In this document: piece by piece, positions 209-46,768 of the stretch
Layout of the letters: each line of letters starts with the position of its first letter
Numbering within the stretch: the stretch's first letter is position 1
NCBI GenBank assembly: GCA_020845975.1
Contig: JADLET010000084.1
Span: forward strand, 2,509-66,508
Source of the DNA: Gammaproteobacteria bacterium
GTDB taxonomy: Bacteria > Pseudomonadota > Gammaproteobacteria > SZUA-140
Direction of reading: 5' to 3'
Length of the DNA stretch: 64,000 nt
Made by a program: the position numbers and the translations under genes
The notes under the pieces: model-generated
What the model was told of the DNA's origin: nothing
Databases searched by the model: none
Seen by the model: only the letters and a program-made list of their open reading frames with translations

Positions 209-1678
209 GTGACTTCAGGCAGGTATCCTACCACATCGAATATGGCGCAACTAACCCGCGCCGGCCGGCGGCGAGCCGGGATTCTGGCATCCCTTTCCAT
301 GCTGATCACCAGTGCGTTTTTCGCTGGCGTCGGGTATGCGGCGGCAGACGCAACGACGGAACCCGCGAAAACGGTCCACGAGTATACCCTCGGGAACGGG
401 ATGAAAGTGCTGGTAAAGGAAGATCACCGCGCGCCGATCGTGGTCTCGCAGGTCTGGTACAAGGTTGGCAGCAGCTACGAGCACGACGGAATCACCGGCG
501 TCTCGCACGCCCTTGAGCACATGATGTTCAAGGGCACCAGAAAGCATCCGGGTGGCGAATTCTCCCGCATAGTCAGCGAGAACGGCGGACGTGAGAACGC
601 CTTCACCGGCCGCGACTACACCACCTATTTCCAGCAGCTGGAAAAGAGCCGGCTCCCGATCAGCTTCGAGCTGGAGGCCGACCGCATGCGCAACCTTGTC
701 CTTCCGGCGGACGAGTTCGCGAAGGAGCTGAAGGTAGTGCAGGAAGAACGCCGCATGCGCACGGATGACAATCCCGAGGCGCTGACCTACGAACAGTTCT
801 CGGCCGCCGCCTTCGTCAACAGCCCCTATCATCACCCGATCATCGGCTGGATGAATGACCTCGATGCCATGCATATCGACGATCTCCGCGCCTGGTATCG
901 CACCTGGTATGCCCCCAACAATGCCACCCTGGTCGTGGCGGGCGATGTCGATCCGGAAGCGGTTTACAAGCTGGCGCGCAGGCATTTCAGCTCGCTCAAA
1001 CCGAGCCGGATACCGGCGCAGAAACCGCGGCTGGAGATCGCCCAGACCGGTGAACGCCGCATCACTGTGAAGGCGCCGGCCCAGCTTCCCTATCTGGTCA
1101 TGGGCTACAAGGTCCCGGTGCTGCGCACGGCGGAAGACGATGGCGAGATCTACGCGCTGGAGGTGCTGGCCGGGATACTGGACGGCGGGGACAGCGCGCG
1201 CATCTCGACGCGCCTGATCCGGGAACAGCGCATCGCCGCGAGCGCGGGTGCCGGCTACAATCCCTATTCGCGCCTCGATGACCTGTTTATCCTGGATGGC
1301 ACCCCCGCCCAGGGGCACGACGTGGCTGAACTGGAACAGGCGTTGCGCCAGGAAATTCAACGACTCAGCGACGAACCGGTCACCGCGGAGGAACTCGGCC
1401 GCATCAAGACCCAGGTCATCGCCGCGGACGTCTACCAGCGCGACTCGGTCTTCTACCAGGCGATGCAGCTCGGCATGCTCGAGACGGTCGGACTGAACTG
1501 GCGCCTCGCGGATACCTACGTCGAGCGTATCCGCGCTGTCACGGCTGAACAGGTGCAGGCCGTGGCGCGCAAATACCTGGGCCCGGACCGACTGACCGTC
1601 GCCGTGCTGTCCCCCTTGCCGATAGATCCTTCCCGTCCGCCTCCTGCCATGGGCGGCCTCGACAACAATATCCGCTGA
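209..1678 (+). CDS. M16-family zinc metallopeptidase (insulinase/pitrilysin-like, PqqL-type), secreted
   Basis: HALEHMMFKGT inverted zinc-binding HxxEH motif. N-terminal RR-containing signal-like region. Paired with a second M16 gene, which is typical. Confidence 0.85.
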   Translation: MTSGRYPTTSNMAQLTRAGRRRAGILASLSMLITSAFFAGVGYAAADATTEPAKTVHEYTLGNGMKVLVKEDHRAPIVVSQVWYKVGSSYEHDGITGVSHALEHMMFKGTRKHPGGEFSRIVSENGGRENAFTGRDYTTYFQQLEKSRLPISFELEADRMRNLVLPADEFAKELKVVQEERRMRTDDNPEALTYEQFSAAAFVNSPYHHPIIGWMNDLDAMHIDDLRAWYRTWYAPNNATLVVAGDVDPEAVYKLARRHFSSLKPSRIPAQKPRLEIAQTGERRITVKAPAQLPYLVMGYKVPVLRTAEDDGEIYALEVLAGILDGGDSARISTRLIREQRIAASAGAGYNPYSRLDDLFILDGTPAQGHDVAELEQALRQEIQRLSDEPVTAEELGRIKTQVIAADVYQRDSVFYQAMQLGMLETVGLNWRLADTYVERIRAVTAEQVQAVARKYLGPDRLTVAVLSPLPIDPSRPPPAMGGLDNNIR

Positions 1679-1715
1679 CACGTGATCCAGCACCGGCGAC
1701 CATTTATCCGGAGTA

Positions 1716-3077
1716 ATGCCAGCCATGACAGGCCATAGCACGAAATTCGCTCTCTTGATCGTCTTGCCGCGGCGGTTTTCCCGCCTCGCTTTGTGGGCCG
1801 TGTGCCTGGCCTTCATGACCCACGCCGTCGCCGCACCCGAGATTCAGCGCTGGGACACCACGAATGGAGCGCGCGTCTATTTCGTCCAGGCGATGGAACT
1901 GCCGATGGTCGATATCCAGCTGGTATTCGACGCGGGCAGCGCCCGCAACGGAGACAAACCGGGACTCGCCCTGCTGACCAGCGCCCTGCTCGATGACGGG
2001 GCGGGCGATCTCGACGCCGACGCCATTGCGTCGGGATTCGAGAATCTCGGCGCCCAGTTCGGCGCCAGCTCGCTGCGCGACATGGGCTCGGTCACCCTGC
2101 GCAGCCTGAGCGAACCGGCGCACCTGGATCCGGCGCTCGACCTCCTCGCGCGGATCCTGCGCACCCCGGCCTTTCCCGCCGATGCGCTGGAACGCGAGCG
2201 CAATCGCATGCTGATCGCGTTACAGTCACAGGATCAATCCCCGGAGGATATCGCACAAAAGACGTTTTTCCAGGCGGTCTACGGCGACCACCCCTACGCC
2301 GCCGATCCGCTCGGCACGCCGGAATCGCTGCCGGCGCTCACGCGCGGGGATCTCGAGGATTTCTATCAACAGTATTACGTGGCGCGTAACGCGGTGATCG
2401 CCCTGGTCGGCGCGCTGGACCGCGCCGATGCCGAGCGTATCGCCCAGCGCCTCGCCGACGGACTCGCCGAAGGCGGCCGCGCGGCGCCGCTGCCCCCGGT
2501 CACCCCGCTCGCGGAAGCAAGAACGGAACATGTGGAATATCCTTCGTCACAGACCCACGTGCTGGTGGGCGCGGCGGGGATCACGCGCGACGACCCCGAT
2601 TATTTTCCCCTCTACGTCGGCAATCATGTCCTCGGCGGCAGCGGACTCGTATCGCGCATCAGCGCCGAGATTCGCGAGAAGCGCGGGCTTGCCTACAGCG
2701 CCTACAGCTACTTCACCCCCATGCGCGCCGCCGGCCCGTACACCCTTGGCCTGCAGACGCGCGGCGATCAGGCGCAACAGGCCGTGAAAATCCTGGACCA
2801 GACCCTGGGCAATTTCATTCAGGGCGGACCCACCGCAGCGGAACTGACCGCTTCAAAGAAAAACATCACCGGCGGATTCCCGCTGCGCATCGCCAGCAAC
2901 AGCAATATCGCGGGCAACCTCGCCATGATCGGTTTTTATGACCTGCCGCTGGATTATCTCGACCGCTTCAATGAACGCGTCGACGCCGTCACGATCAACC
3001 AGATCCGGGATGCCTACCAGCGGCGCGTGCATGCCAATCAGATGGTAACGGTGACCGTTGGCACCACGGCACCGTAA
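1716..3077 (+). CDS. M16-family peptidase, second (likely non-catalytic) subunit
   Basis: Insulinase-like architecture with signal peptide and no HxxEH motif. Sits immediately downstream of the catalytic M16 gene. Confidence 0.75.
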   Translation: MPAMTGHSTKFALLIVLPRRFSRLALWAVCLAFMTHAVAAPEIQRWDTTNGARVYFVQAMELPMVDIQLVFDAGSARNGDKPGLALLTSALLDDGAGDLDADAIASGFENLGAQFGASSLRDMGSVTLRSLSEPAHLDPALDLLARILRTPAFPADALERERNRMLIALQSQDQSPEDIAQKTFFQAVYGDHPYAADPLGTPESLPALTRGDLEDFYQQYYVARNAVIALVGALDRADAERIAQRLADGLAEGGRAAPLPPVTPLAEARTEHVEYPSSQTHVLVGAAGITRDDPDYFPLYVGNHVLGGSGLVSRISAEIREKRGLAYSAYSYFTPMRAAGPYTLGLQTRGDQAQQAVKILDQTLGNFIQGGPTAAELTASKKNITGGFPLRIASNSNIAGNLAMIGFYDLPLDYLDRFNERVDAVTINQIRDAYQRRVHANQMVTVTVGTTAP

Positions 3078-3663
3078 AACGGCCGGAACGGGGGAGAGCG
3101 GACGGCTGCGCATCATCGGTGGCCAGTGGCGCAGCCGCCGAATCGAATTCGCCACCGTCGCGGGCGTCCGCCCCACGGCTGACCGCATTCGCGAGACCCT
3201 GTTCAACTGGCTGCGTGAAGCGATTCCCGGCGCACGCTGCCTTGATCTCTACGCGGGCAGCGGTGCGCTCGGCTTCGAGGCGCTCTCGCGCGGCGCACGC
3301 AGCGTCGTCTTCGTCGACCAGGACATTCGGGTCGTACAGCAGTTACAGACCAACGCCGCGCTGCTCGGCGCGCAGGGCGCGGAGATCGTCTGGTCGGATG
3401 CGCTGGAATACCTGGCGCAGGGCGGCAGGGACAAATTCGACGTGGTCTTTCTCGACCCGCCCTTCCGCGATGACGTGATCGGAGAACTCTGCCGCAAACT
3501 GGAACACCACGGCCTGCTGGCCAGCCAGGCCTGTATCTACCTGGAATCGGATCAGCACCGCGCCCCGCCTGAACTGCCCGCCAACTGGCGGCTGCTGCAC
3601 GACAAATCCGCCGGACAGGTTGCCTATCGGCTCGCCCGTCGCGACGCCGCGGCCGATCGATAG
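3058..3663 (+). CDS. rsmD: 16S rRNA (guanine966-N2)-methyltransferase RsmD
   Basis: RIIGGQWR...DRIRETLFNWL...LDLYAGSGALGFEALSRGA...FLDPPF motifs. Conserved position between ftsY and coaD. Confidence 0.85.
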   Translation: MAPRHRKTAGTGESGRLRIIGGQWRSRRIEFATVAGVRPTADRIRETLFNWLREAIPGARCLDLYAGSGALGFEALSRGARSVVFVDQDIRVVQQLQTNAALLGAQGAEIVWSDALEYLAQGGRDKFDVVFLDPPFRDDVIGELCRKLEHHGLLASQACIYLESDQHRAPPELPANWRLLHDKSAGQVAYRLARRDAAADR

Positions 3664-3729
3664 GCGCACGCGGCCACGCGTATTTGCTGCTACACTGACG
3701 GACACCGGCCGCAAACCGGCAGAGGAATC

Positions 3730-4209
3730 ATGAAACAGCTCGCCATCTATCCCGGCACCTTCGATCCCATCACCCATGGGCACACCGATCTCGTCGAGCG
3801 TGCCGCCCGTGTGTTCGAGCGCGTCATCGTCGCGGTCGCGGCCAACCCGGTCAAGGCGCCGACCTTCTCGCTCGCGGAACGGATCCGCCTGGCCGAGGCC
3901 GTGCTGGGCGGGATCCAGGGCGTCGAGGTATGCGGCTTCGACCGCCTGCTGGTGGAATTCGCGCGCGAACACCAGGCCTCCATCATCCTGCGCGGACTGC
4001 GCGTGGTCTCGGACTTCGAATATGAATTCCAGCTCGCCGGCATGAACCGCAAGCTGGACCCGGGCATCGAGACCCTGTACCTGATGCCCGCCGAACAATA
4101 CGCCTATATCTCATCCAGCCTGGTCAAGGAAATCGCCTCCCTCGGCGGCGACATCTCCGCCTTCGTGCACGAAGGCGTCATGGCTGCGCTGTACAAAAAG
4201 ATGCGTTAA
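3730..4209 (+). CDS. coaD: Phosphopantetheine adenylyltransferase
   Basis: [25 protein letters not shown] is the canonical CoaD N-terminus with T/HxGH nucleotidyltransferase motif. 159 aa. Confidence 0.95.
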
Positions 4210-4246
4210 GCTTCGTTAATTCGCTCCACTGCCCAATCTGATGTGA

Positions 4247-4513
<267 letters not shown>

Positions 4514-4520
4514 TGCCGGC

Positions 4521-6263
4521 ATGACGCCTCGAACCGCGCCTTCGACCCTGGTCCGCCCCGCCGGAGCGGGGATCGGTGGCGTCGGGCGCGCGCTCCTCGC
4601 CGGCCTGCTTGTTCTCGTCACGGGGACCCATGGCGCCTTCGCGCAGGCCGCTGACACACAAACCCCGTCCGCGGCCGCAGTCGCCTCCGCCCACCCGCTT
4701 GCCACCCGGGCGGGTCATGACATCCTGCAGGCGGGAGGTAATGCCTTCGATGCCGCGGTGGCGGTTGGCGCGATGCTGGCGGTGGTGGAACCGACCGGCT
4801 CCGGACTCGGCGGCGGCGGCTTCTGGCTGCTGCACCGCGCCGCGGACGGTCGGGAAATCATGCTCGATGGCCGCGAACGCGCACCGCTCGACGCGCATGC
4901 GGATATGTACCTGGACACAGACGGCGCGGTAATCCCTGCCGCGTCGATCAACGGCGCGCTGGCGTCGGCCATCCCCGGCACACCGGCCGCCCTGGCGCAC
5001 CTGGCCAGTCAGTACGGACGCCTGCCGCTGGCGCGCAGCCTCGCCCCCGCCATCCACGCCGCCCGCGAGGGGTTCCCCGTCGACGCGCATTATCTTCAAC
5101 TGGCGCGCTTCCGACTGGAGGCGCTGCGCCGTTCACCCGCCGCCGCGGCCATCTTCCTCGATCAGGGTGATCTGCCGAAAGAAGGTTACATCCTGCGGCA
5201 GCCTGATCTGGCGCGGGCGCTGGAGTCGATCGCCGGGCACGGGCATGCGGGTTTCTATGCAGGCCCGTTGGCCCAGGACCTCGTCGATGGCGTGCGTGCG
5301 GCGGGGGGCATCTGGAGCCTGCGCGACCTCGCCGGCTACCGTGTCGTCGAACGCGAACCGGTGCGAGGCGAATATCGCGGCATACGCATCACCACGGCCG
5401 CGCCCCCGTCCTCCGGCGGCATCGCGCTCGTCACCATGCTGAACATCCTCGCCGGTTATCCCCTCGAGGACCTCGCCGCGCCCGACCGCGCGCACCTCGT
5501 CATCGAGGCCATGCGCCGTGCCTACCGCGACCGCGCCGTCTACCTCGGCGACCCGGACTTCACGGAGGTCCCGATGGAAGTATTGCTGTCTCCGGCCTAC
5601 GCGGCCGGCCTGCGCAACGCCATCCGCCCCGATCGCGCCACGCCGAGCGCGATGCTCCCCGGTGTCGCGGCCGATGCGACGGGCACGGACACCACCCACT
5701 TCTCGATCCTGGATCGCGCCGGCAATCGCGTGGCCGCGACGCTGTCGATCAATCTCCCCTTCGGGGCCGCCTTCATGCCGCCCGGCACCGGGATCCTGCT
5801 CAACAACGAAATGGATGATTTCTCCATCAAGCCGGGCGTGGGCAATTCCTATGGCCTGGTCGGCGCGCAGCCCAATGCCATCGCACCGGGCAAGCGGCCG
5901 CTTTCGAGCATGACGCCGACCTTCCTCGACGATGGCCGCCGGATCGCGATCCTCGGCACGCCGGGAGGCAGCCGCATCATTACCATGGTACTGCTGGCCG
6001 CACTCGACTTTCAGCGTGGCGCCCCACCGCGGGAATGGGTGGGGTTGCGGCGTTATCACCACCAGTATCTGCCGGATGTCGTGAGCTACGAACCGGGCAC
6101 ATTCAGCGCGGACGAGACAGCGGCCCTGGCCGCGCGCGGGCATACGCTCGAGGAACGCACACGTCCTTACGGCAACATGCAGGCGATCCTGTGGGACCGC
6201 GCGGACAATCGCGTCAGCGCCGCGAGCGATCCACGCGGTGGTGGCACGGCCGAAACTCGCTGA
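4521..6263 (+). CDS. ggt: Gamma-glutamyltranspeptidase
   Basis: Signal peptide. TTHFSILD catalytic threonine region and GGSRIIT motif. 580 aa. Confidence 0.9.
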   Translation: MTPRTAPSTLVRPAGAGIGGVGRALLAGLLVLVTGTHGAFAQAADTQTPSAAAVASAHPLATRAGHDILQAGGNAFDAAVAVGAMLAVVEPTGSGLGGGGFWLLHRAADGREIMLDGRERAPLDAHADMYLDTDGAVIPAASINGALASAIPGTPAALAHLASQYGRLPLARSLAPAIHAAREGFPVDAHYLQLARFRLEALRRSPAAAAIFLDQGDLPKEGYILRQPDLARALESIAGHGHAGFYAGPLAQDLVDGVRAAGGIWSLRDLAGYRVVEREPVRGEYRGIRITTAAPPSSGGIALVTMLNILAGYPLEDLAAPDRAHLVIEAMRRAYRDRAVYLGDPDFTEVPMEVLLSPAYAAGLRNAIRPDRATPSAMLPGVAADATGTDTTHFSILDRAGNRVAATLSINLPFGAAFMPPGTGILLNNEMDDFSIKPGVGNSYGLVGAQPNAIAPGKRPLSSMTPTFLDDGRRIAILGTPGGSRIITMVLLAALDFQRGAPPREWVGLRRYHHQYLPDVVSYEPGTFSADETAALAARGHTLEERTRPYGNMQAILWDRADNRVSAASDPRGGGTAETR

Positions 6264-6293: not shown

Positions 6294-7067
6294 TTACAGC
6301 TCGCAGTCGTAGTCGATGGTCAGCGGAGCGTGATCGGAAAAGCGCTCGTCCTTGTAGATGGACACCATCCTGACCCGATCCTTCAGTCCGGGCGTGATTA
6401 CCTGGTAGTCGATGCGCCAGCCGACGTTCTTGGCCCAGGCCTGACCGCGATTGGACCACCAGGTGTACTGGTCCGCCTCCTGATTGACGACACGGAAGGC
6501 GTCGACGAAACCGAGCGGCACGAACAACTGGTCCATCCAGGCGCGCTCCTCGGGAAGAAAGCCGGAGTTCTTCTGATTGCCGCGCCAGTTCTTGATGTCC
6601 AGTTTTGTATGCGCGATGTTCCAGTCGCCGCAGATGACATACTCGCGTTTCCCGCAGCGAAATTCCTTGAGCACCGGGGTGAAGCGTTCCAGAAAATCGA
6701 ACTTCACCGCCTGGCGGTCCTCACTGCTGGAACCCGACGGAAGATACAGCGAGATCACACTGAGCGAACCGAAATCCGCCTGGATGAAACGCCCCTCCCG
6801 ATCCATGTCCGGCCAGCCGAGCCCCATCGTGACCTGGTCGGGCTCGCGCCGGCAATAGAGCGCCACGCCGCTGTAACCCTTCTTCTCCGCATCGTGATAA
6901 TAGGCGAAGTAACCGGCCGGCCTCAGCAACTCATCGTTCAGCTGATGCTCCTGCGACTTGGTCTCCTGCAGACACACCACATCGGCGCCCTGTCGCGCGA
7001 GCCACGGGAAGAAACCCTTGCGGGCAGCCGAGCGTATGCCATTGGCGTTCAGGCTGATGATGCGCAT
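6294..7067 (-). CDS. xthA: Exodeoxyribonuclease III
   Basis: MRIISLNANGIR N-terminus and C-terminal SDHAPL motif. Start re-placed on the internal ATG preceded by AGGGA (8 nt). The ORF-track start at 7100 is a GTG. Confidence 0.85.
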   Translation of the reverse strand: MRIISLNANGIRSAARKGFFPWLARQGADVVCLQETKSQEHQLNDELLRPAGYFAYYHDAEKKGYSGVALYCRREPDQVTMGLGWPDMDREGRFIQADFGSLSVISLYLPSGSSSEDRQAVKFDFLERFTPVLKEFRCGKREYVICGDWNIAHTKLDIKNWRGNQKNSGFLPEERAWMDQLFVPLGFVDAFRVVNQEADQYTWWSNRGQAWAKNVGWRIDYQVITPGLKDRVRMVSIYKDERFSDHAPLTIDYDCEL

Positions 7068-7163
7068 CAATGCCATCCCTTGCTTGTCTGTCGAAGGCAC
7101 CGATGATACTGGAGCCGACGCGCGGCGTGAATTTGGAAGGCGCGGGAATTTTCCATGGATTGC

Positions 7164-7196
7164 TTGACATCTGAAAATTTCATCTCACACTAGACC
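7164..7196 (+). promoter_or_regulatory. Putative sigma70-like promoter for the leader transcript (TTGACA at 7164-7169 with a weak -10); orientation ambiguous
   Basis: Perfect TTGACA hexamer in the AT-richer stretch ttgcTTGACAtctgaaaatttcatctcacactagacc. The -10 is poor. It could equally be read on the minus strand as an xthA promoter. Confidence 0.25.
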
Positions 7197-7693
7197 GATC
7201 AGCGCTCCACGCAGAAGGGAGCAGAGGGGGATGAAACGGTCGCGCTCCGCCGTCAAGCACCCGCACGCACTGGACTGGTCCGGTCCCGGCTCGACTGCCG
7301 TGGCGACGAGGATGCGGTCCCGGGTTCCGCTTCTCCCCGGATACGGCGACACCGCCGTCATCACCGCCCTCTATCCGCTCTCCCATACACCATCGCGTAC
7401 ATGGTCCGGCCGCACCCCGGGCGCATGACGTCACCCGCGTTTCTCCCCGGGCAAGGATGTCCATCGGGGAAACCGGCGCGGTCCGGCGGGTCTCCGCCGG
7501 ACCGCACCGTAATCCCGCCAGTCAGGCGGGATGCAGGCAAGACACCGGTCGCACCGCCATGGAAGCGGTCGCCCGTCCGCAATCCGCAGCATATCCGGCC
7601 ATGGCACAAACGGGATGCCGACAACCTGCGACACGTAACAGACAGCGGTCATCCTCACGCACGCACGCAACGGCCGGATAACGGTACGACATG

Positions 7694-7722
7694 AAAAAAA
7701 GCGGCCTGAATGCCGCTTTTTC
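7694..7722 (+). terminator. Intrinsic (rho-independent) terminator, bidirectional shape, 43 nt upstream of the parA-like start codon
   Basis: aaaaaaaGCGGCctgaatGCCGCttttt: GC stem, 6-nt loop, A-tract before and T-tract after. Confidence 0.7.
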
Positions 7723-7764
7723 ATGCCCATAAATGCCGTCGTCACGGGTGGAGGGACACGACAC

Positions 7765-8892
7765 ATGATCACGATCGCCATCGCCAATCAAAAGGGGGGA
7801 TGCGGCAAAACCACCGCCGCCATCAATCTGGCCGCCGCGCTGGGACGCAATGGCCATCGCGTACTGCTGGTCGACACCGATCCCCAGGGCCATGCCTCGC
7901 TGGGACTGGGACAACACTGCGGCAATCTGAACGGATTGTACGAGGTATTCATCCAGGAAGCAGAGCTCAGCGAGGTCATCATCCCCGCGGTAGCGCCCGG
8001 AGTCGATCTGGTGCCGTCGACCATCTCGCTCGCCGCCATCGAACACCTGCTGGCGGATCTGCCCCGCCGCGAGCGCCAGCTCGCGCAGCATCTGGACAGC
8101 CTGCCCCTGAACTACGACTTCGCCATCATCGACTGCCCGCCCACGCTCGGCCTGCTCTCATTCAATGCCTTGCGCGCCGCGGACCTGGTGCTGATACCGG
8201 TGGAGATGAGCGTGTTCGCGCTGGACGGGGTGGACCGCCTGCGTGACACCATCGAACTGCTGGCGGAAAAATACGAACTCGACATACCGGTACGCATACT
8301 GCCCAATCTGGTTGATCACCGCACCCGCTTCACGCAGGACACGCTGCATCGCCTGAAGGAGCGCTTCGGCGAGGAGATCCTCCCGGTGAGCATTCACTAT
8401 ACCGTGCGACTGAAGGAGGCCGCGGCGCGCGGCATACCCATCATCGATCACCAGCCCGGCTCGGTGGCGAGCGACAATTATCTCGCCCTGGCGGCGGAGA
8501 TCCTCCGCTTCAATGCGCAGACCATGCCTCGCGCACAGTCCGCGCGCGCTCCGTACGACGTCCCCCTTCCCGTCAGCCGCACTGTGGAAGAGCCGGATGA
8601 CGCGGATTACCGGCGGGACGTCAGCATGATCTTCCACGGACCCGCCGGGATCGATATCCAGATCGCCGGCGACTTCAACGGCTGGGCGCCCGATCAGGGG
8701 GTGGTGACGGAACGTCATGACGACATGCTGATCAAGACCCTGCATGTCGGTCCAGGACGCTATCAATACCGCCTGATCGTCAACGGGGAATGGCGCGCCG
8801 ACCCCACCAACCCGCGCTTCGAGACCAATGAATACGGCGAGATCAATTCCGTGCTCGAAGTGGAGGACATCCCGCACCTCGTCCCCGCATGA
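7765..8892 (+). CDS. ParA/MinD-family (deviant Walker A) ATPase fused to a C-terminal AMPK-beta glycogen-binding-like (CBM48/E-set) domain
   Basis: Start placed at the ATG giving MITIAIANQKGGCGKTT (KGGxGKT deviant Walker A), with GGAGGG SD 9 nt upstream. The ORF-track ATG at 7723 lies inside the terminator T-tract. The C-terminal ~90 aa VSMIFHGPAGIDIQIAGDFNGWAPD...GPGRYQYRLIVNGEWRADPTNPRF...NSVLEV matches the AMPK1_CBM/CBM48 consensus (F.W.G..V.L.GSFNNW...G.HQYKF.VDG.W..DP..P). Confidence 0.8.
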   Translation: MITIAIANQKGGCGKTTAAINLAAALGRNGHRVLLVDTDPQGHASLGLGQHCGNLNGLYEVFIQEAELSEVIIPAVAPGVDLVPSTISLAAIEHLLADLPRRERQLAQHLDSLPLNYDFAIIDCPPTLGLLSFNALRAADLVLIPVEMSVFALDGVDRLRDTIELLAEKYELDIPVRILPNLVDHRTRFTQDTLHRLKERFGEEILPVSIHYTVRLKEAAARGIPIIDHQPGSVASDNYLALAAEILRFNAQTMPRAQSARAPYDVPLPVSRTVEEPDDADYRRDVSMIFHGPAGIDIQIAGDFNGWAPDQGVVTERHDDMLIKTLHVGPGRYQYRLIVNGEWRADPTNPRFETNEYGEINSVLEVEDIPHLVPA

Positions 8893-9602
8893 TACGCCGC
8901 CCGGAGGACACCGGACCGAAGGAGCGGCTGCAGAGCATCAGTCGCCATTTCCTCGATGAGGGACATTCCCCCCGCTGCATTGCCGTGCTCGGCGTTGCTG
9001 AAAACCCTCATGCCATCCCCATCGATGGCCTGGCCCGCGCACTGGCCGGACGCGGCATCGCGGTCGCCGTCACGGACACGGCCGCGAAACTGCTTGTGCA
9101 TGTTTGCCAGGAACCTGGCGGCATCAGACCCGCCACTGACATCGCGCCATTGTCCAGAGGCCGCGACGACACGCTGGCCAGGCCGCGCCGCGGAGCGCCT
9201 CCCGAATTGATGCTCATCACGACCCCACCGACGGATGCCCGGACCTGCTCCCTGATATTGCTGGCCGTTCCGGCGCAGGCACATGGCATGCGCTCCGCCT
9301 ATCGCAGACTCAAGGGTCTGGCGCGACTCAATCCCATGCCCGCGATCGGAATCACACTGACCGATGCCCGCACATGCGACGAGGCGGCCGCCGGTTTCGC
9401 CCGCTTCGCATCCGCGGCCAGGCGCTTTCTCGGCATCGGGGTCACCAGTTACTCGTACCTCGCCGCCGGCCGGACACGCGGTGAAGACGAGGCATCACTC
9501 AACGATATCGCACGCCTGCTGCTGGCCGATCTGCGCCGCGCGGACCAGGCTGATCAGCTGATGAAATCGCCGGACCAGGAGGCGCCATGGGTATGCGGAT
9601 AA
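8889..9602 (+). CDS. Hypothetical protein with a degenerate ParA/MinD-like fold lacking a P-loop (candidate partner of the upstream ATPase)
   Basis: ATGA start/stop overlap with the upstream gene. Secondary-structure-like pattern CIAVLGV...GIAVAVTDTA...ELMLITTPP...LILLAVP...GITLTDA resembles the ParA core but has no GxxGxGK[ST]. Confidence 0.55.
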   Translation: MIRRPEDTGPKERLQSISRHFLDEGHSPRCIAVLGVAENPHAIPIDGLARALAGRGIAVAVTDTAAKLLVHVCQEPGGIRPATDIAPLSRGRDDTLARPRRGAPPELMLITTPPTDARTCSLILLAVPAQAHGMRSAYRRLKGLARLNPMPAIGITLTDARTCDEAAAGFARFASAARRFLGIGVTSYSYLAAGRTRGEDEASLNDIARLLLADLRRADQADQLMKSPDQEAPWVCG

Positions 9603-10162
9603 AAACCCTCACACTGACATCCGGACAGATCCTGCGTGAACTGATCGTGGATGCCTTGCCGCAAATCCTCGGGGAGGATTTCTCGATCGTCAGCGCTGAC
9701 CTCCCGTTCGATGGCAGCCTGATGCTGTGCCTGGATGCGAAACGACATCCGGCGCTGGTGGCCTTCGATGCCCGCGACAGTGGTCGCGCGCTGCTGGCGG
9801 CTCTGCGTGCCGTGGAAAGACTGGGAGACAACCGCGGCATGCTGTTTCGTCTCTATCCCGCGCTGTTCCCGGACAATGGCCGCCACTTCCCTGAGAACGA
9901 ACTTCGCCTCGTACTGCTCGCACCGGAAGCGCCCCCGGGCACGGCGTATCTTGCCCGCGCCTTTCCGGCCCTGAGTGCTTATACCTTTCGCATCCTGGAG
10001 ATCGACGGAAACCTCGGGCTGCTGGTCGATCCGGCCGCGACCGACACCGGGCGCATCGAGGACGGGGTTCCGCCGGAGACGCCATGCGCGCCGTTCCGCT
10101 GCGGCCTCGACCCCGGGCAGGCGCTCAGCGCACAGGAGGAGCGTCACTTCGCGGACGCCTGA
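9587..10162 (+). CDS. Hypothetical protein (third gene of the ParA-like operon)
   Basis: Overlaps the stop of the previous gene by 16 nt. No recognisable motif. High-GC codon usage consistent with host. Confidence 0.5.
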   Translation: MGMRIKTLTLTSGQILRELIVDALPQILGEDFSIVSADLPFDGSLMLCLDAKRHPALVAFDARDSGRALLAALRAVERLGDNRGMLFRLYPALFPDNGRHFPENELRLVLLAPEAPPGTAYLARAFPALSAYTFRILEIDGNLGLLVDPAATDTGRIEDGVPPETPCAPFRCGLDPGQALSAQEERHFADA

Positions 10163-20106: not shown

Positions 20107-20128
20107 CCGTTCTCCTTCCACGGGCATA

Positions 20129-20157
20129 AAAAAACCCGCCTTAAGCGGGTTTTTTTA
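20129..20157. terminator. Bidirectional intrinsic terminator shared by rpmBG (+) and the desaturase gene (-)
   Basis: aaaaaaaCCCGCcttaaGCGGGttttttt. Confidence 0.85.
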
Positions 20158-20175
20158 TGCTTCTCCGCCCGACGT

Positions 20176-26576: not shown

Positions 26577-27050
26577 ATGAAAACCACGCCTCCCGGCCGT
26601 CCTGACCCAGGCAAATCCTGCGCGACCCTGCTGAACCGGGCCAGCGGAGAATTCGGATACCTTATAGAACACAGCAAACGACTGGAGCGCATGTCCCGCA
26701 TGCTGCTGAACCGGCTCCCGCCCTCGTTCCAGCAACACTGCCGGGTCGCCGGAATCACGCAGCAAACCCTGATCCTGCACGCGGACTCTCCGGCATGGGC
26801 GACAAAACTACGTTATTATTGCCCGCAATTACCTGCCGATCTGTGTCAGTTGCCGGATTTCAGGCAACTGACCGATATCCGCATCAAGGTGATACCGCCA
26901 GAGTTTCTGCAAACATCACGCCAGACGAGCCCGCCTGTACGGCGATCATTGCCTCCATCAGCCGCGCGCCTGTTGCGCGACGTGGCTGCCACAACCTCGA
27001 ATGCGCCACTCAGGGATGCGCTGCTACGCCTGGCAACCCGAGGAAAATAA
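26577..27050 (+). CDS. DUF721 (DciA-like) protein
   Basis: Position between lpxC and secA as in Pseudomonas. Weak similarity pattern to DUF721 proteins. Start could also be 26499. Confidence 0.5.
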   Translation: MKTTPPGRPDPGKSCATLLNRASGEFGYLIEHSKRLERMSRMLLNRLPPSFQQHCRVAGITQQTLILHADSPAWATKLRYYCPQLPADLCQLPDFRQLTDIRIKVIPPEFLQTSRQTSPPVRRSLPPSAARLLRDVAATTSNAPLRDALLRLATRGK

Positions 27051-39604: not shown

Positions 39605-41059
39605 TCAGCCCCCCAGCCCTGCCTGTCGCGCCGGCGCCGGACCGCTCGAACCGCCGCCCGCCGCCTCGTCGGCAACCGTAATGGCGTCGACCACATGCTC
39701 CATGCGCGTGCTGCGCGAGCCCTTGACGAGCACGGTGACCGGCGTGGGTGTGAGGGCGGCAAGATCCGCCTGCAGGGCCGCAATCAGCGTGGCCTGATCT
39801 GGATAGTGGCCGGCGCCCTTGCCAAAGGCGCCGGCAACGGTGCGCGCCAGTTCGCCGACCGCATAGACACGGGAAACTCCGATCGCGCGCGCCTGACGCC
39901 CAACCTGTTCGTGCAGCGCCTGACCGGCGTTGCCGAGCTCGCCCATATCGCCCAGCACCAGTATCTTCTCGCCGTCGGCGCCACCCACCGCCAGCACCTC
40001 CAGCGCCGCCTTCACCGAGCCCGGGTTCGCGTTATAGGTATCATCAATGACACGCGCCCCGTGGATACCGCGCCTGAGCTGCAGGCGCCGTTCGACCGCG
40101 CGCATGGACTCGAGCCCGAAGGCGATGTCCGCAACTCCCAGTCCTGCGGCATGTGCCGCCGCCGCCGCGGCCAGTGCGTTCATCACGTTGTGGCGGCCGG
40201 ACAGACTGAGCTCGACCGCCGCCTCGCCCCCCGGCGTGATCAGCGTGAAGGAGCAGCCAAGGACTGCATTGAGGTGCAGGTCACGCGCCGTCACGTCGGC
40301 GGGATAACGCAGGCCGAAGCTGACGATGCGATGCGGCGCGGCCATGACCCGCCATAACCCCTCGCGTGGATCATCGGCGTTGATCACAGCGCAACCGTCC
40401 GGACCCAGTCCGGAGAAAATCTCGCCCTTGGCGCGCGCCACACCGGCGATATCGCCGAATCCCGCCAGGTGGGCGGGCGCGGCGTTGGTGATAAGCGCGA
40501 CCGTGGGACGCGCGAGACGTGTGAGATATTCGATATCCCCGGGCTGATTCGCGCCCATCTCGATCACTGCGCCGCGATGCTCGCGCCGCAGATTGAACAA
40601 CGTGAGCGGGACGCCGATGTCGTTATTCAAATTACCGTGCGTACTGAGCGCGCTCCCCCGCGTGGCCAGAATGGCGGCCAGCATCCCCTTGACCGTGGTC
40701 TTGCCGTTGCTGCCGGTCACTGCGATGAGTGGTATGGGAAAGCGCTCACGCCAGGCGGAGGCGAGCCGGCCCAGTGCGAACCGGGTATCTGCGACGCACA
40801 CAACGGGCAACGCGGTGGCGACATCGCGATGCACCAGCGCGGCGACCGCGCCGCGCGCCGCCGCGGCGGCGAGATACTCGTGCGCGTCGAAGTTGCGTCC
40901 CTGCAAGGCAATGAACAGGGCGCCCGCTCCCAGCGTACGGGTATCGGTGCCGACCGTATCGAAACGCCGGTCCGCGCCGCGCAGCTCACCATCGACCAGC
41001 AGCGCCAGCTCGCTCAGCGTCATGCCGCCCTCGAGCGCCACGTCATGCAACACGGTCAT
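39605..41059 (-). CDS. murF: UDP-N-acetylmuramoyl-tripeptide--D-alanyl-D-alanine ligase
   Basis: Mur ligase domains ([11 protein letters not shown]). Dcw position. Confidence 0.93.
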
Positions 41060-46401: not shown

Positions 46402-46768
46402 TGAGGTGGGAGCCGGCCTGTAAGCCGGGTTCTGTCGTGGACAGTCATTCATCTGGGACACGCGTTACCGCGCGCCTCAAGCGACCTACCCGGGAACAGT
46501 GCGGGCCGCACCAATGTTCCCCTATTTGGTCTTGCTCCGGATGGGGTTTACACTGCCACTGGTGTTACCACCAGCGCGGTGCGCTCTTACCGCACCATTT
46601 CACCCTTACCCGCCACCTCACGGCGGCAGGCGGTATATTTTCTGTTGCACTGGCCGTCGGCTCACGCCGCCCAGGCGTTACCTGGCATCCCGCCCTATGG
46701 AGCCCGGACTTTCCTCCTCCTCCTGCCGCTTGAGGCGACAGGGAAAGCGACTGTCCGGCCGACTCCCG
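46402..46768 (-). ncRNA. rnpB: RNase P RNA (bacterial type A, M1 RNA homologue)
   Basis: The reverse complement contains the universally conserved blocks GGAAAGTCCGGGCTCCATAGGGC, AGGTAACGCCTGG, CAGTGCAACAGAAA, GGGTGAAA.GGTGCGGTAAGAGCGCACC and CCCGGGTAGG.CGCTTGAG, aligned to E. coli M1 RNA. P1 pairs GGAGTCGGCC with GGCCGGCTCC. Confidence 0.9.

Follow-up and report, generated by a model that had tools for sequence, protein, structure and literature searches.

Remnant of a MerR-family gene as the probable structured leader of a parA-CBM48 operon in a gammaproteobacterial clade

Intergenic spacers that are degraded remnants of genes have been described for the genomes of Rickettsia and Mycobacterium leprae, and a bias toward deletion is usual. 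The stretch of DNA analysed here, called the window, comprises 64,000 nucleotides (nt) of contig JADLET010000084.1 from a gammaproteobacterium and contains a gap of 697 nt (7068–7764) between xthA, whose ATG lies at 7067–7065 on the minus strand, and parA-CBM48, whose ATG lies at 7765 on the plus strand. The gap is a pseudogene of the MerR-family gene that was the first gene of the parA-CBM48 operon, and this fossil cistron appears, on balance, to act now as a structured, terminator-ended 5' leader of that operon.

The operon starts with a merR-like gene, which is followed by a gene for a ParA-family ATPase whose C-terminal domain is CBM48/AMPK1_CBM and by genes for proteins of 237 and 191 amino acids (aa); from parA on it occupies 7765–10162 in the window, and it was compared over loci L001–L097. 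The 237-aa and 191-aa proteins match no Pfam or NCBIfam family. The merR-like/parA-CBM48 operon recurs in Gammaproteobacteria, Nitrospirota, Myxococcota, Spirochaetota, Planctomycetota and Omnitrophota; the 27 fetched loci with a merR-like match come from several phyla, and this match mostly lies directly upstream of the ParA-CBM48 match. A full-text literature search on ParA-CBM48 systems returned nothing relevant.

Descent of the gap from a MerR-family gene

The homologues of ParA-CBM48 form a graded series. Contigs at 72–99% ParA identity (L081–L094) show, wherever they reach far enough upstream, the order ggt, xthA (minus strand), a gap of 680–716 nt, parA-CBM48, two unknown genes and pyrE, and only in L082 does the gap carry a gene call, an open reading frame (ORF) of 220 aa. 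In L095, L096 and L097, with ParA identities of 70%, 63% and 62%, the synteny (compared across the relatives for ggt, xthA, gap and parA-CBM48) is the same, and the gap is filled by an intact MerR-family gene of 158–170 aa on the plus strand; the L095 protein matches Pfam MerR_1 with E=1.7e-16. The distance between xthA and parA is 610–713 nt where merR is intact, as against the 680–716 nt of the relic loci. In L097 merR and parA overlap, and the ancestral arrangement is that of a co-oriented operon.

The relic state is common to a clade of at least eight assemblies, and ParA of the window is only 74–78% identical to that of the deeper relic lineages. A scan of the genome collection found no ParA above 55% identity, and a pattern scan of metagenomes gave one more locus of the clade (L098), so that eight sequences entered the structure alignment. 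In L081, a contig of an NCBI metagenome-assembled genome that is 99% identical, the first ~200 nt show many C/G-rich mismatches to the window, and the model score is 105.8 bits compared with 188.8 bits for the window; the mismatches at 1–200 are probably contig-end assembly errors.

Global DNA alignment of positions 7231–7694 with the merR coding sequence of L095 yields z=7.6, a score reached by 0/200 shuffles, and still z=4.0 when the first 60 nt are removed; for the coding sequence of L097 the corresponding values are z=4.5 (0/200 shuffles) and z=5.1. In composition-adjusted tblastn searches, the L095 MerR protein matches the gap of L094 over 134 aa (E=7e-7), and the L096 protein matches the gap of L093 over 151 aa, colinearly and in a single frame (E=7e-6). 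The gaps of L084 and L088 match the N-terminal 23–40 residues of MerR (tblastn, E=8e-4 and 2e-3). A covariance model built from the relics alone finds the merR coding sequence of L095 at the homologous place with 35.5 bits (E about 1e-7). The gap therefore combines an orthologous position with colinear residual homology to intact MerR genes, as a pseudogene descended from such a gene would. The initial annotation, which read the gap as a riboswitch, an attenuator or a separate small RNA, had set against its own reading the chance that a homology search would reveal a frameshifted pseudogene, and the decayed first gene is just that. No second merR copy was found within the 64-kb window.

The loss of coding took two different forms. 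In the window and in L082 one A of the A-run after the ATG was lost (ATGAAA-CGG in the window, ATGAAACGG, versus ATGAAAACGG in L095 or ATGGAAACGG), while in L093 and L094 the ancestral ATG is replaced by ACG. Past the deletion, the ancestral frame of the window lacks ATG, GTG and TTG codons as far as 7401; translation initiated at the old ATG (7231) would end at 7426–7428. Translations of the ancestral frame in the window, L084, L088, L090, L093 and L094 match no Pfam family at E<=1, the L095 protein serving as the control.

The initial annotation had judged the region non-coding, and the comparison with relatives bears this out. Differences between close pairs are spread evenly over the three codon phases of the gap (0.22/0.21/0.18, 0.25/0.27/0.23 and 0.26/0.24/0.26), in contrast to 0.09/0.06/0.26 in the parA control for the window and L082, and codon-level purifying selection is not seen in the relic. 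A fast-evolving Arg/Pro-rich or recoded protein might still be encoded, as every relative has a stop-free frame of 165–186 codons, L084, L088 and L090 retain an ATG in frame and a gene is called in L082. This reading is hardly credible, since the stop-free frames, the 220-aa ORF of L082 included, have the lengths expected from dinucleotide shuffles (P=0.17–0.34), codon periodicity is absent even in close pairs, no family is matched, the start was lost in two ways, and the frame in which the conserved island is read differs between L093 and the others.

The gene call in L082 (836–1498) was judged spurious, its ORF length being at the level of chance. A spurious open frame of 998 codons is also found in the GC-rich DNA of L084, where it spans xthA, the gap and parA on the minus strand (1531–4527).

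Table 1. Features of the xthA–parA gap in the window
Feature	Position	Strand	Description
xthA promoter-like site	7103–7131	-	TTCACG-17-TATCAT; sole promoter-like match of the promoter scan
Putative ancestral merR/operon core promoter	7164–7191	+	-35 TTGACA 7164–7169, 16-nt spacer, -10 CACACT 7186–7191
5'-untranslated-region (5'-UTR) hairpin	7204–7222	+	GCUCC...GGAGC; -9.1 kcal/mol, z=-2.0
MerR-family gene relic	7231–7694	+	ancestral ATG 7231–7233; ancestral frame ends with TGA 7692–7694
H0	7439–7473	+	UUUCUCCCC...GGGGAAAC around GGGCA-AGGA-UGUCC; -15.9 kcal/mol, z=-2.1
H1	7474–7509	+	hairpin of 13–15 base pairs (bp); perfect 12-bp core 7478–7505
H2	7512–7532	+	8-bp hairpin AUCCCGCC/GGCGGGAU; -15.6 kcal/mol, z=-5.0
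H3	7546–7575	+	10-bp interrupted hairpin; in the window -13.5 kcal/mol, z=-1.3
Relic tail	7576–7690	+	C/A-rich, G-poor (C/G=1.44, A 28%); identity 0.45–0.55; weak helices only
Intrinsic terminator	7696–7721	+	stem GCGGC 7701–7705/GCCGC 7712–7716, loop CUGAAU, U-run 7717–7721
parA-CBM48 ribosome-binding site (RBS) and ATG	7746–7767	+	GGGUGGAGGGA, ATG at 7765; conserved in all relatives including L095 with intact merR

Promoter, lost operator and terminator

The perfect -35 hexamer TTGACA claimed by the initial annotation is present and belongs to the putative core promoter of the ancestral operon. The sequence CTTGACA...CACACTAG is kept in 7/7 relic loci and in the loci with intact merR, where the -10 element reads CACACT, CAAACT, CAAAAT or TAAAAT (nAnAnT). 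The -10 element of the window, CACACT, fits the consensus at three of six positions, and the consensus scan made no call for this promoter. Transcription would start near 7198, as judged from the promoter sequence. The promoter spacer contains a near-palindrome, TGAAAATTTCA, at 7169–7184, which is perfect in L084 (TGAAATTTCA); the other relatives keep it only in part. This element could be what is left of an operator, or an alternative one.

The 5'-UTR hairpin takes its 3' arm from the former Shine-Dalgarno region of merR (GGGAGCAGAGGGGG). Its CUCCC/GGGAG pairing is also kept in the intact locus L095, and the alignment of the relics shows no covariation in this hairpin.

In the intact loci a dyad, GACAAAA-N8-TTTTGTC, ends 8–9 nt upstream of the -35 sequence CTTGACA (L095 ~516–537, with equivalents in L096, L097, L001, L004–L008, L012 and L073). 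It scores 11–14/14 in most intact loci, mostly with 0/300 shuffles as high, and 9/14, the chance level, in 7/7 relics. The dyad may be an operator; its position is activator-like, unlike the usual MerR site between -35 and -10. It would be the operator of the regulator itself, decayed alongside the gene.

At the other end of the relic, the initial annotation had placed a canonical terminator immediately upstream of the RBS, and it is found there as AAAAAGCGGC-ctgaat-GCCGCTTTTT, its T-run ending 43 nt before the parA ATG. The stem is extended by A-U pairs, with a folding energy of -17 kcal/mol and z=-5.6; a simple terminator scan did not report it, apparently since the A and T runs lengthen the stem. 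Across seven relatives neither the stem nor the T-run varies, the loop is free to change and the A-run on the upstream side has not been kept, a pattern that points to function on the plus strand. Clear terminators made of a stem and a U-run also stand after the intact merR gene in L096, L011, L002 and L004; that of L095 is weaker. The terminator is thus the ancestral one between merR and parA and not a new expression platform.

Neither the promoter scan nor the alignment reveals a conserved promoter in the stretch from the terminator to the parA RBS, so that parA-CBM48 is probably dependent on read-through. In L096, where merR is intact, the terminator of this gene is followed, ahead of the parA RBS, by a second hairpin, CGGTCCG-cacaccac-CGGACCG (2008–2030), the stem of which resembles that of H1 in the window (GGTCCGG/CCGGACC); this may be coincidence.

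The conserved promoter and the conserved, efficient-looking terminator together bound a discrete unit, as would be expected if the gap encoded a separate trans-acting non-coding RNA some 520 nt long between the promoter at 7164–7191 and the terminator at 7721, with parA-CBM48 transcribed independently. Such an RNA is improbable. The stretch between terminator and RBS measures about 25 nt, its -10-like positions are variable and it contains no conserved promoter-like element; the ancestral operon was co-oriented, with merR and parA overlapping in L097, and most of the unit evolves neutrally.

Hairpin cluster and its interpretation

The conservation islands of the gap are the xthA promoter block (7101–7116), the plus-strand promoter CTTGACA-N16-CACACT (7163–7193), the 5'-UTR hairpin with the dead start region (7204–7275), H0 (7439–7473), the terminator and the parA RBS; conservation at 7498–7600 is moderate, and 7290–7435 and 7600–7690 drift freely according to the conservation profile. 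The block CGATGATACTGGAGCC at 7101–7116, which overlaps the xthA promoter-like site, is invariant in seven relatives. Over its whole length the leader is rich in C and poor in G (C/G=1.27).

RNAalifold, run on the eight sequences including L098, predicts four local hairpins, H0–H3, at 7439–7575; helices predicted elsewhere have weaker support. H0 is the most conserved island of the gap, with a mean pairwise identity of 0.84, and derives from codons for AFLPSQERPLTE. Its outer helix is 100% paired with only U-A/U-G alternation, and its inner helix is 87.5% paired and shows no covariation. The critical positions of a sigma-54 or extracytoplasmic function (ECF)-type promoter are absent from the H0 island on inspection of the alignment.

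The two very stable hairpins that the initial annotation had reported, GCGGTCCGGCGG-gtct-CCGCCGGACCGC and ATCCCGCC-agtca-GGCGGGAT, lie at the positions it gave and correspond to H1 and H2. The core of H1 with three flanking pairs reaches -33.8 kcal/mol (z=-6.0), and 0/200 shuffles are as stable. The distal sequence and the length of H1 differ among relatives and its pairing is kept (91% of cells), with 8/13 pairs changed on both sides. H2 is 95% paired, with two doubly changed pairs and seven G-U cells on the plus strand, and its site in the intact merR of L095 forms AUCCUGGU/ACCAGGAU, with 8/8 pairs. H3 is 94% paired with three doubly changed pairs, and 9/10 of its pairs form in the intact L095.

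Over the cluster, pairing holds in 93.0% of cells, compared with 39–48% when the partners are slid, and 13/40 pairs are doubly changed versus 0–2 in the slid controls; 0/500 shuffles reach the observed values. The comparative alignment that the initial annotation had proposed thus reveals compensatory changes in H1–H3 across the relatives. The folding z of the relics averages about -2.2, that of the homologous stretch of the intact genes about -0.5; in 26 other intact genes the columns of H2 pair in 65% of cells and those of H3 in 58%. The plus strand is favoured, though not proven, as the functional RNA strand because of the orientation of the promoter, the retention of the T-run and not of the A-run at the terminator, and the excess of G-U cells (27) over A-C cells (11), plus-strand pairing being 93%.

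The ancestral operon comprised a merR-like regulator, an intrinsic terminator, parA-CBM48 and two unknown genes. In the clade of the window the regulator gene has died and the upstream dyad has decayed, and what has been kept is the putative sigma-70-type core promoter, the 5' hairpin with the dead start region, H0–H3, the old terminator and the parA RBS. In the proposed mechanism, transcription from near 7198 would yield about 500 nt of untranslated RNA, which would either end at 7696–7721 or read through into parA-CBM48, so that the dead cistron would act as a long leader with a constitutive attenuator. The hairpins have probably been kept since they could shield the untranslated C-rich RNA from Rho-dependent termination and RNases, or since they bind a factor. 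Sensing of a ligand by the leader is unsupported.

Several observations weigh against this interpretation. The protein similarity of the window itself to MerR is weak (tblastn E=0.3), and a hidden Markov model (HMM) of 27 intact MerR-like proteins found nothing significant in six-frame translations of the relics (best E=0.23), for which reason homology was established by other routes, namely tblastn, alignment of the DNA and the covariance model; in the case of the window it is based on the DNA alignment together with synteny and the link through the sister relics. The folding of the minus strand is thermodynamically no worse than that of the plus strand (z=-4.6 versus -2.5), with pairing in 88% as opposed to 93% of cells. 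The alignment holds only eight sequences from about 4–5 independent lineages, the conservation of H0 and of the terminator is not accompanied by covariation, and H3 is weak in the window. H2 and H3 can already be folded in the intact merR of L095, and part of the structure may hence predate the death of the gene. The transcription start, the read-through and the rationale involving Rho are all inferred.

The gap could also be a functionless pseudogene spacer, in which only the promoter, the terminator and the RBS matter and in which the hairpins persist by mutational processes on DNA quasi-palindromes (template-switch correction) or by inheritance rather than by RNA-level selection. In keeping with this, the overall divergence of the gap is about that of synonymous sites, its identity being close to that of parA 4-fold sites (0.80 versus 0.76 for the window and L082, 0.61 versus 0.61 for the window and L084), and the two freely drifting segments are essentially unconstrained. 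H1 pairs equally on both strands (5 G-U versus 6 A-C cells), as a DNA palindrome would, and proto-hairpins were already contained in the coding sequence (CTGGT/ACCAG from Leu-Val and His-Gln codons). A spacer of this kind is nonetheless unlikely, as H1–H3 keep 91–95% pairing with 13 doubly changed pairs while loops and flanks drift, the identity of H0 exceeds that of 4-fold sites (0.60–0.77), and the full gene length is kept at 74–78% ParA identity despite the usual deletion bias.

It is also hypothesized, though only tentatively, that H0–H3 form a new cis-acting RNA element, which arose inside the living merR gene and is the reason why the dead gene keeps its full length. Control of read-through into parA-CBM48 by RNA would then have replaced the regulator and its operator, and the element might, for example, be a sensor or a platform to which an operon product binds.

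A riboswitch or signal-sensing attenuator, in which the fold of a sensor chooses between terminator and read-through, would agree with the length and conservation of the leader, with hairpins that are stable and covary, and with a terminator that is likewise conserved and lies 43 nt ahead of the start codon, and the loss of the regulator protein might lead one to expect another form of control. The architecture that the initial annotation had recognized is to this extent real: the promoter is conserved, the stable hairpins are compensated and a conserved terminator precedes the RBS. Neither a riboswitch nor a known RNA family finds support. The covariance-model scan that the initial annotation had suggested, run with Rfam 15, gave no match at the gathering score in the gap of the window or of seven relatives, in line with its own failure to match any element by eye; hits at E<=10 are at chance level, the best being CC3513 on the minus strand with 26.4 bits against a threshold of 40. 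ARAGORN found no transfer RNA or transfer-messenger RNA gene (0 genes in 6900–7900). The consensus fold consists of independent local hairpins in a row; it lacks a multi-helix junction and, except in H0, a conserved unpaired core. Apart from a GCCG motif of 4–5 nt, inspection of the alignment revealed no conserved competitor of the terminator arms that could act as an antiterminator, no dedicated search having been run. The terminator, moreover, is older than the leader, as it is found after intact merR. A riboswitch is accordingly very improbable.

With the gap regarded as a dead MerR-family gene turned leader, the 700 nt that looked "empty" are explained without a new riboswitch, and the finding is mostly accounted for; what remains of interest is that a whole clade has kept a dead regulator gene undiminished in length and with stems that covary. 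The locus is a worked example of how a gene fossil can be separated from a regulatory RNA by the synteny of distant relatives, a codon-phase test and the joint decay of the operator. If the selection on the hairpins is real, it would document a dead regulator gene recycled as a structured leader, and would flag a widespread uncharacterised operon the regulation of which was rewired in one gammaproteobacterial clade.

Among other structures of the window, perfect hairpins with a stem of at least 9 bp number five in the 64 kb, 2/5 of them inside the gap. A repeat of the repetitive extragenic palindromic (REP) or miniature inverted-repeat transposable element (MITE) type was rejected as the source of the hairpins at 7478–7505 and 7512–7532, which are single-copy in the window at <=3 mismatches. 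A perfect 14-bp hairpin, GCATAAAAAAACCC-gccttaagc-GGGTTTTTTTATGC, at 20124–20160 has A and T runs on both sides and looks like a bidirectional intrinsic terminator. Perfect hairpins of 9–10 bp at 26845–26872 and 39809–39835 have no U-run. A full-length class A bacterial RNase P RNA (345.7 bits) lies at 46405–46766 on the minus strand.

Comparison with known systems

The gap is most directly compared with the intact merR-like genes (PF13411 MerR_1/PF00376; L095–L097, L001–L012 and others), with which it shares position, orientation, length, core promoter, 5'-UTR hairpin, start-codon context, downstream terminator, parA RBS and colinear residual similarity. Unlike them, it has no usable start or frame, no recognisable helix-turn-helix domain, no codon-level constraint and no upstream dyad.

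The large non-coding RNAs and repeats OLE, GOLLD, ROOL, HEARO, raiA and REP elements are similar to the gap in their size of several hundred nt, their GC-rich stable hairpins and their intergenic location. The gap differs from them in that it has no Rfam match, its hairpins are single-copy in the window and most of its length is unconstrained.

Terminator-ended leaders and attenuators, including internal operon attenuators, share with the gap a promoter, a long structured untranslated RNA, a GC stem with a U-run and the RBS of the first functional gene. In contrast to these, the gap contains no leader peptide, no identifiable antiterminator alternative and no known aptamer, and its terminator was originally intercistronic. 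The likeness to structures in long leaders that antagonise Rho or shield against it, of which the element reported in the Salmonella mgtCBR leader is an example, lies in the proposed role, namely that structure in a long untranslated C-rich leader would prevent premature Rho-dependent termination; this role is purely inferred, and no sequence relationship is expected.

Like the spacers known as degraded gene remnants, the gap is a non-coding stretch that derives from a decayed gene and is recognised through relatives that keep the gene. Unlike those spacers, it keeps its full length across a deep clade, together with compensated stems and the position of a leader in an active operon.

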